A stretch of DNA of 64,000 nt from Escherichia coli (GTDB lineage: Bacteria; Pseudomonadota; Gammaproteobacteria; Enterobacterales; Enterobacteriaceae): NCBI RefSeq assembly GCF_003334305.1, contig NZ_QOWS01000022.1. The stretch is one strand, 5' to 3'. Shown here in pieces: positions 44,010 to 44,845 of the stretch. Position numbers and translations under genes: made by a program. The notes under the pieces are model-generated. The model did no database searches. It had not been told where the DNA came from and worked only from the letters and a program-made list of their open reading frames with translations. The first letter of the stretch is position 1. The number at the start of each line of letters is the position of its first letter.

Positions 44010-44044
44010 TAATAAGAGCTGATGGCGTGAAATAACGCCGGGCT

Positions 44045-44845
44045 TTATGCCCGGCGCATTACCGTCTGGTACATTAAGCTATCCAGTTCCTTAACGTCCC
44101 CTTCTCTGCTATCCGGTAACAGCGGTGGAATTTCCCCACGCGCCAGTTCCGCACGAATAAACGCATGTAACAATGGACGGAGCGGACCATATTCCGCTTC
44201 TCCTGCGCGCTGTTTACGTTCCAGTAATTCGTCTATTTCTGCACGTAACGGCGCATCAAGTTCGCTTCCCGCCAGTAACTCAGCAAAGCGCATTGGCGGT
44301 ACGCCTTTACCCGCTTCGACCCAGCGCACGGCCAGCAGCGGACGCAGCACGTAAAAGTATTTTTTCAGTCGAACTTCGTCGCCCTGCAAATATCCGGGGA
44401 AGTTTTTCTGCGCCATCGAATAGTAATGCCAGCGCGCACGCAGCGGAGAAAACCACATTGGGACCATTGCCTTAAACGCCGTTATCGTTTCTTCATCTTG
44501 TTGATAAACCACCGGAGAATCCAGCCATTCTATCAGCGTCGGGTTCGCGCCTTTCAATAATCCCAGCGCCTTACGCCACTCCCAACCGGAAACATCTAAC
44601 TCGTCGTCGATGGGCAGCTCAATAACATCGCGCGGTGACTCTACTCGCAGATACCATTCCAGCGGGTGAACATACAAAAACCGTACATCGTAGTCGCTGT
44701 CGGGCGAGGCAAATCCCCAGCCGCGGCTCCCTGATTCACAGGCGTACAGTACTTTCACATCATACCGCCGTTCAATTTCTTTTAACTGCTGCGATACCCT
44801 TTCTCGCATCGCAGCACTGACTCCATTTAATGGCATGTTACTCAC
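44045..44845 (-). CDS. Pol-beta superfamily nucleotidyltransferase (minimal NTase fold)
   Basis: 266 aa; NTase motif CESGSRGWGFASPDSDYDVRF (GS...DxD) near the N-terminus, helical C-terminal half; start overlaps upstream SPFH gene stop by 4 nt (ATGA). Confidence 0.75.
   Translation of the reverse strand: MSNMPLNGVSAAMRERVSQQLKEIERRYDVKVLYACESGSRGWGFASPDSDYDVRFLYVHPLEWYLRVESPRDVIELPIDDELDVSGWEWRKALGLLKGANPTLIEWLDSPVVYQQDEETITAFKAMVPMWFSPLRARWHYYSMAQKNFPGYLQGDEVRLKKYFYVLRPLLAVRWVEAGKGVPPMRFAELLAGSELDAPLRAEIDELLERKQRAGEAEYGPLRPLLHAFIRAELARGEIPPLLPDSREGDVKELDSLMYQTVMRRA

Follow-up and report, generated by a model that had tools for sequence, protein, structure and literature searches.

Among the elements described in E. 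coli, the intrinsic terminators come closest to the hairpin found at the 3' end of the rlaP gene in the 64-kb stretch of E. coli DNA analysed here (the window). Like them, this hairpin combines a G/C-rich stem of 8-9 bp, a 5-nt loop and a U-rich 3' stretch, here on the minus strand, stands at the end of an operon and folds at about -17 kcal/mol. It differs from them by its short and interrupted U-tract, by the stop codon of the last gene lying within the loop and by a 5' arm that is coding. The convergent bidirectional terminators of E. coli (for example ynaJ-uspE; SEnd-seq; bioRxiv 10.1101/2022.10.23.513370) also consist of a single hairpin in a short gap. For such hairpins between convergent genes, pausing and polymerase collision have been proposed, the hairpin acting as a pause site even where intrinsic termination is weak (bioRxiv 10.1101/2022.10.23.513370). 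The present locus departs from this second class, as no U-tract is found in the direction of the convergent gene, ezeT, the flanks are asymmetric and conservation tracks one gene only. With REP and BIME elements, the hairpin has in common that it is a G/C-rich palindrome at gene ends and can stabilise the upstream mRNA, whereas it is present in single copy per genome and lacks the REP consensus. As regards the neighbouring genes rather than the hairpin itself, the rtc locus of P. aeruginosa with PaFlo8 similarly encodes an SPFH protein and an RlaP nucleotidyltransferase (PMC13086221; RlaP PMC12776372). Unlike rtc-type loci, the E. coli island is devoid of rtcB, and neither RtcR nor RtcA is seen adjoining.

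The hairpin is carried by an accessory chromosomal island of E. coli inserted between lysC and yjbD. The 3-kb segment 43000-46000 was found in 1634 of the 5426 complete E. coli genomes, and K-12 is without the island. On the plus strand, ezeT (43083..44009) encodes a 308-aa single-polypeptide toxin-antitoxin of the zeta type and is convergent with rlaP. The window DNA is 100% identical to the DNA annotated as WP_000212693.1 in RefSeq, a protein named as EzeT in a 2023 review (PMC10532202). In EzeT, the zeta toxin and an N-terminal antitoxin domain acting in cis share one polypeptide chain (PMC10532202; PMC4826407). Its homology to PezT covers residues 86-307, in keeping with a zeta/PezT kinase fused to an N-terminal antitoxin. 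The gene ends in three consecutive in-frame stops, TAATAATAA (44007-44015).

On the minus strand, rlaP (44045..44836) encodes a 263-aa nucleotidyltransferase of the Pol-beta superfamily. It belongs to the RlaP family, with a full-length match to Pfam PF10127 (E = 9.5e-94, residues 10-256, model positions 1-248 of 249), and its ends are identical to those of the RefSeq CDS WP_001130532.1. RlaP family members extend damaged 3' ends of RNA by one or two nucleotides and are usually linked to an RNA ligase (PMC12776372). The first gene of the operon (44842..45969, minus strand; RefSeq WP_000592033.1) encodes a 375-aa slipin of the SPFH (Band 7) type, matching Pfam PF01145 (E = 1.4e-23) and, weakly, HflK/HflC models in NCBIfam. 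In the E. coli island, the slipin stop and the rlaP start are no more than 5 nt apart. In a PADLOC search of the neighbours, neither the nucleotidyltransferase nor the slipin gave a match, and the kinase gave a marginal one only. From the slipin start to yjbD, about 400 bp (45970-46370) are non-coding and partly alignable to the lysC-yjbD spacer of K-12. A consensus scan of this interval, the place where the slipin-rlaP promoter would be expected, returned no sigma-70-like site on the minus strand. On the other side of the island, the expected and already annotated lysine riboswitch stands upstream of lysC (41301-41497; Rfam RF00168, 99.5 bits).

The hairpin itself (44036..44056, minus strand) is a perfect 8-bp stem made up entirely of G/C pairs and closed by a 5-nt loop. 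As read from the window sequence, its arms are CGCCGGGC (44036-44043) and GCCCGGCG (44049-44056), on either side of the loop TTTAT (44044-44048). The rlaP stop codon TAA (44047-44045, minus strand) is located inside the loop, and the last three rlaP codons, CGC CGG GCA (Arg-Arg-Ala), make up the 5' arm in the minus-strand RNA. In the opposite direction, 26 nt separate the ezeT stop codon TAA (44007-44009, plus strand) from the hairpin. An earlier note had described a perfect 8-bp hairpin with a TTTAT loop, a kinase gene stopping at 44009 and an overlap with the stop region of the nucleotidyltransferase gene, all of which is borne out by the sequence. It had also presented the hairpin as shared by the two convergent genes; the hairpin does lie between both, although it overlaps the end of the nucleotidyltransferase gene only and is simply downstream of the kinase gene.

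Folded alone, the hairpin reaches -17.9 kcal/mol as plus-strand RNA and -17.3 kcal/mol as minus-strand RNA. In a 71-nt context, the energies are -25.2 (plus) and -22.9 (minus) kcal/mol, about three standard deviations better than dinucleotide shuffles (z = -3.05 and -3.42, respectively). RNAalifold adds a ninth pair, G.U, between 44057 and 44035. The 64-kb window has a single copy of the exact pattern, against 0.03 expected. Perfect hairpins of at least 8 bp with a loop of 3-8 nt are themselves about five-fold enriched in the window (36 hits, corresponding to about 23 distinct hairpins, versus 7.2 +/- 2.9 in shuffles), and the rlaP hairpin is the sole one among them with an all-G/C 8-bp arm. 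On the minus strand, stem length, loop size and base composition fall within the ranges of intrinsic terminators (stem of about 5-14 bp, loop of 3-8 nt, G/C-rich). The element moreover forms a hairpin in both RNAs and stands between convergent genes, two features expected of a bidirectional terminator.

The two strands differ in what follows the stem. In the minus-strand RNA, the stem runs directly into the U-rich tail 5'-UUAUUUCA-3' (44028..44035), which appears on the plus strand as an A-rich TGAAATAA upstream of the stem. The consensus promoter/terminator scan of the window called the hairpin on neither strand; it was therefore scored separately and calibrated against the other hairpins of the window. 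For this purpose, the discriminant d of d'Aubenton Carafa (1990) was computed with ViennaRNA energies, and the absolute values are approximate, modern energy parameters having been applied to the formula. The minus-strand tail, with 5 U in 8 positions and a tail score of 2.9, gives d = +15.4 and a borderline U-tract, whereas the plus-strand tail CAUUACCG (also given as CATTACCG), in which 2 of 8 positions are U, gives d = -22.3. A U-tract on both strands, as expected of a bidirectional intrinsic terminator, is thus absent, the plus strand having none. The other gene-end hairpins of the window have positive d values of about +1 to +32 on at least one strand. The good terminator candidates among them span +6 to +32, a range that includes the minus-strand value of the rlaP hairpin, and those flanked on both sides by A/T runs, which are candidate two-way terminators, have d of at least 0 on both strands. 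The minus-strand U-tract is modest, being short and interrupted: taking the G.U pair as part of the stem leaves only 4 T among the 8 bases that follow and lowers d to +4.6.

These features argue that transcription of the slipin-rlaP operon, on the minus strand, probably ends at this hairpin in a Rho-independent (intrinsic) manner; as such a terminator, the hairpin would be an ordinary member of a very well-known class. The broader claim of the earlier note, that a terminator or RNA 3'-end hairpin separates two convergent units on an accessory island, is supported by these data. Its proposal of a bidirectional action fares less well, as the sequence favours the minus strand only, through the discriminant (+15.4 versus -22.3), the U-tail, the natural variants and the linkage to rlaP. 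In the direction of ezeT, the sequence offers support neither for intrinsic termination nor for true bidirectionality.

The stem was compared in eight distinct alleles, namely those of the window, five further E. coli strains, Escherichia sp. MOD1-EC7003 and Superficieibacter. In the minus-strand RNA, all 64 of the 64 stem cells pair, against 96.9% in the plus-strand RNA. This difference stems from two single-base variants that form U.G pairs in the minus-strand RNA and C-A mismatches in the plus-strand RNA. A compensatory double change, from G-C to A-U, is found in Escherichia sp. MOD1-EC7003. RNAalifold recovers from these alleles the identical helix together with the G.U pair, which is invariant. 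The loop is variable (AUAAA, GUGAU or GUGAA), and a stop codon, TAA or TGA, is always kept in it (8/8 alleles). The maintained stem, the overlap with the stop codon of the last gene and the co-inheritance with rlaP are as expected of an intrinsic terminator at a gene end. Covariation is thin, because it amounts to one double change in one sequence and is reached by 68 of 500 shuffles; it thus supports the structure and is not decisive. As the 5' arm of the hairpin is coding, some of the conservation could also be exerted at the protein level. In Superficieibacter, the rlaP DNA is only about 75% identical, yet 39 consecutive nt spanning the final codons, the hairpin and its U-tail are identical; by our own estimate, about 0.03 such runs would be expected in the gene.

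Used as a blastn query, the 60-nt hairpin region matched island-bearing genomes only, at a median of one place in each (1631 genomes, 1635 places). Strain HS and an O26:H11 strain are among those with a 100% identical sequence. In E. coli Ec-U9-1, A37 and MS1718, slipin-rlaP occupies the same place by yjbD, and ezeT is replaced by a phage-tail cluster. The replacing segment is about 16 kb of contractile-tail genes ending in tail-fibre genes (MS1718: NZ_CP097716.1 4727459-4743174). In these alleles, the sequence alignable to the window reaches only 6-12 nt past the stem towards ezeT, and therefore the hairpin and its U-tail belong to the constant slipin-rlaP unit. The intervening spacer (44010..44027), from the ezeT stop to the conserved terminator tail, is segment-specific, and homology to these alleles is lost there. 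The junction between conserved and variable DNA is not the same in all alleles, standing at about 44024-44026 in some and at about 44030 in others according to the alignment (blastn coverage 44026-44030). The U-tail is retained as UUAUUUUA, UGAUUUAU and UUAUUUAU in alleles with unrelated DNA beyond, although two of those next to the tail cluster have weaker tails, with d = -1.3 and -5.4. In the 71-nt fold of the plus strand, an extended pairing of about 44018-44028 with 44057-44070 was also obtained. It was rejected as a chance pairing because its left half is swapped out in the same alleles.

The tail cluster encodes a Mor activator, a holin, a transglycosylase, sheath, tube, tape measure and baseplate proteins and tail fibres. 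It looks like an R-type tailocin locus placed between lysC and the rlaP terminator, because it carries neither head, integrase nor replication genes. The same replacement of ezeT by a tail cluster of about 16 kb is seen in Superficieibacter and Phytobacter massiliensis. Past lysC, further hairpins were noted. Island strains carry a 10-bp hairpin, GGCGTATAAC-N11-GTTATACGCC (42951-42981), 12 nt after the lysC stop and without a U-tract. In the tailocin strains, this spot is occupied by another hairpin, of 11 bp, GGTGAATAGCG...CGCTATTCACC, and the K-12 sequence differs again. Proteins 96-100% identical to those of the E. coli island were also found on two metagenomic contigs, JAIJJM010000308.1 ('Collinsella sp.' MAG) and JAEZCC010000043.1 ('Bacillota' MAG), on which rlaP and slipin occur with ezeT, or rlaP with tail-fibre genes. 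These contigs from Gram-positive MAGs are most likely mis-binned E. coli contigs.

A survey of one genome per species yielded 43 rlaP loci. In Citrobacter, Klebsiella, Kosakonia, Phytobacter and relatives, slipin-(rtcB)-rlaP is directly convergent with lysC, without ezeT. Between slipin and rlaP, Citrobacter, Klebsiella, Kosakonia and Phytobacter carry a 408-aa ORF that we take to be RtcB, going by its sequence motifs. Judging from these gene orders, the E. coli slipin-rlaP pair appears to be a reduced slipin-rtcB-rlaP operon from which rtcB has been lost. Unrelated hairpins, canonical ones in Klebsiella and related loci, occupy the same position past rlaP in Klebsiella and Phytobacter massiliensis. 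Terminators typically behave in this way, keeping their position while their sequence changes. A terminator score above 0 was obtained directly past the rlaP stop in 8 of the 43 loci versus none of 43 internal control windows. The support from this survey is partial, as at many loci rlaP is followed by a co-directional gene or by REP-like palindromes devoid of a U-tract. Taken with the tailocin-context strains, these loci suggest that the terminator is the outer edge of a conserved slipin-rlaP unit, beyond which lies ezeT, a phage-tail cluster or lysC directly.

If the hairpin is the terminator of slipin-rlaP, RNA polymerase moving along rlaP would copy the G/C-rich inverted repeat and the nascent RNA would fold into the 8-9 bp stem. 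This stem is directly followed by UUAUUUCA, and the complex would be released about 7-9 nt past it. The structure, its strand asymmetry, its conservation, its linkage to rlaP and its single copy are observed, whereas the termination itself, its efficiency and any effect on ezeT are inferred. The hairpin may also shield the 3' end of the slipin-rlaP mRNA. In the ezeT transcript, the hairpin would form without a U-tract and could at most pause the polymerase, stabilise the 3' end or mark a point of collision, and polymerases arriving from rlaP may collide head-on there with those transcribing ezeT. Any read-through of the ezeT transcript would yield an untranslated antisense RNA, open to Rho. 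One consideration weighs against efficient termination at this place: where translation is tightly coupled to transcription, a ribosome that terminates in the loop would sit on the whole hairpin and could make termination less efficient.

The foremost alternative is a truly bidirectional terminator, with one hairpin efficiently ending both the ezeT transcripts on the plus strand and the slipin-rlaP transcripts on the minus strand. It agrees with the convergent arrangement, in which this hairpin is the sole strong one across the 35-nt gap that separates the ezeT stop from rlaP, and with the nearly equal stability of the stem in both RNAs (-17.9 and -17.3 kcal/mol). Weak hairpins between convergent genes can still set sharp 3' ends through pausing and collision (bioRxiv 10.1101/2022.10.23.513370). 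At the equivalent position in Klebsiella, a symmetric A-tract/hairpin/U-tract element, AAAAAUGGCCCG...CGGGCCAUUUUAUU, occupies the 50-nt rlaP-lysC gap and is shared with the convergent lysC. In the window, however, the plus-strand RNA runs from the stem into CAUUACCG (2 U in 8, d = -22.3), and the flanks are asymmetric, unlike those of the candidate two-way terminators of the same window. Moreover, the natural stem variants unpair the plus-strand RNA only, and inheritance of the hairpin follows rlaP rather than ezeT. Efficient termination in both directions is therefore a possible but rather doubtful reading.

Less likely again is that the terminator is sensitive to translation, the ribosome that finishes rlaP masking the hairpin, so that antisense read-through into ezeT would track transcription-translation coupling. 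A ribosome near a hairpin can impair the folding of a terminator. The stop codon is kept in the loop in all eight alleles despite the change between TAA and TGA, and the DNA downstream of the terminator is the antisense strand of a toxin gene. On the other hand, stop codons near or inside terminator stems are common and usually without regulatory meaning. Orthologues in other genera end in ...TVM-x-stop just before their own hairpins, and the overlap is thus not a conserved feature of the family. Because these orthologues stop before their hairpins, the three codons by which the E. coli rlaP frame enters the stem seem to lengthen the protein only incidentally. In its strongest form, this reading makes the hairpin a valve: closely following ribosomes would mask it and allow antisense read-through into ezeT, thereby coupling an RNA-repair operon to the control of a cell-wall toxin. 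Such a valve is rather improbable, its basis being limited to the geometry of the stop codon and to what lies downstream; if it did operate, ezeT read-through would conversely be antisense to rlaP.

It has also to be considered that the palindrome acts at the DNA level, as a recombination or insertion target for the exchange of cargo (ezeT, the tail cluster or IS elements) next to lysC. The boundary between conserved and variable DNA does lie 6-12 nt from the stem. In E. coli JNEC-KY172, an IS1414 element (IS256 family; locus 1530-2860) sits inside the hairpin, in the loop and 3' arm, splitting the terminator from rlaP and flanked by a 9-bp target duplication, TCACGCCCG. This is, however, a single IS insertion among about 1630 genomes, and the position of the cargo junction varies between alleles, unlike that of a site-specific event. 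Neither the ezeT nor the tail-cluster segment contains an integrase or recombinase, and no direct or inverted repeats flank the island in the searched interval 42900-46520. A boundary just outside the terminator is also what selection keeping the terminator would leave. A role as an exchange site is accordingly very improbable.

A dispersed repeat of the REP/BIME type or a small-RNA gene, which the G/C-rich palindrome in an intergenic spot, the REP-like palindromes at the hairpin-equivalent place of the orthologous Citrobacter loci and weak Rfam hits to SorX (19.5 and 18.3 bits) could evoke, is scarcely credible: the hairpin is present once in the window and, by the median, once per genome, so that it is not dispersed and not a REP-type repeat, and SorX was rejected as a match to a generic hairpin only, its two hits (E = 0.4-0.9, with E = 0.4 for the better one at 19.5 bits) being far below the gathering score of 46.6. 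Indeed, in the Rfam scan of 41000-47000 with permissive E-values, the lysine riboswitch was the only real hit, and no family reached its gathering threshold at the hairpin.

Read as the probable terminator of slipin-rlaP, the hairpin annotates the 3' end of this operon and shows ezeT to be without a canonical terminator of its own. Should ezeT transcripts nevertheless stop here in spite of the missing U-tract, the locus would provide a natural test case for collision-assisted convergent termination. More broadly, the terminator would be the point near lysC at which a conserved slipin-(rtcB)-rlaP RNA-repair unit gives way to cargo that differs among Enterobacteriaceae.
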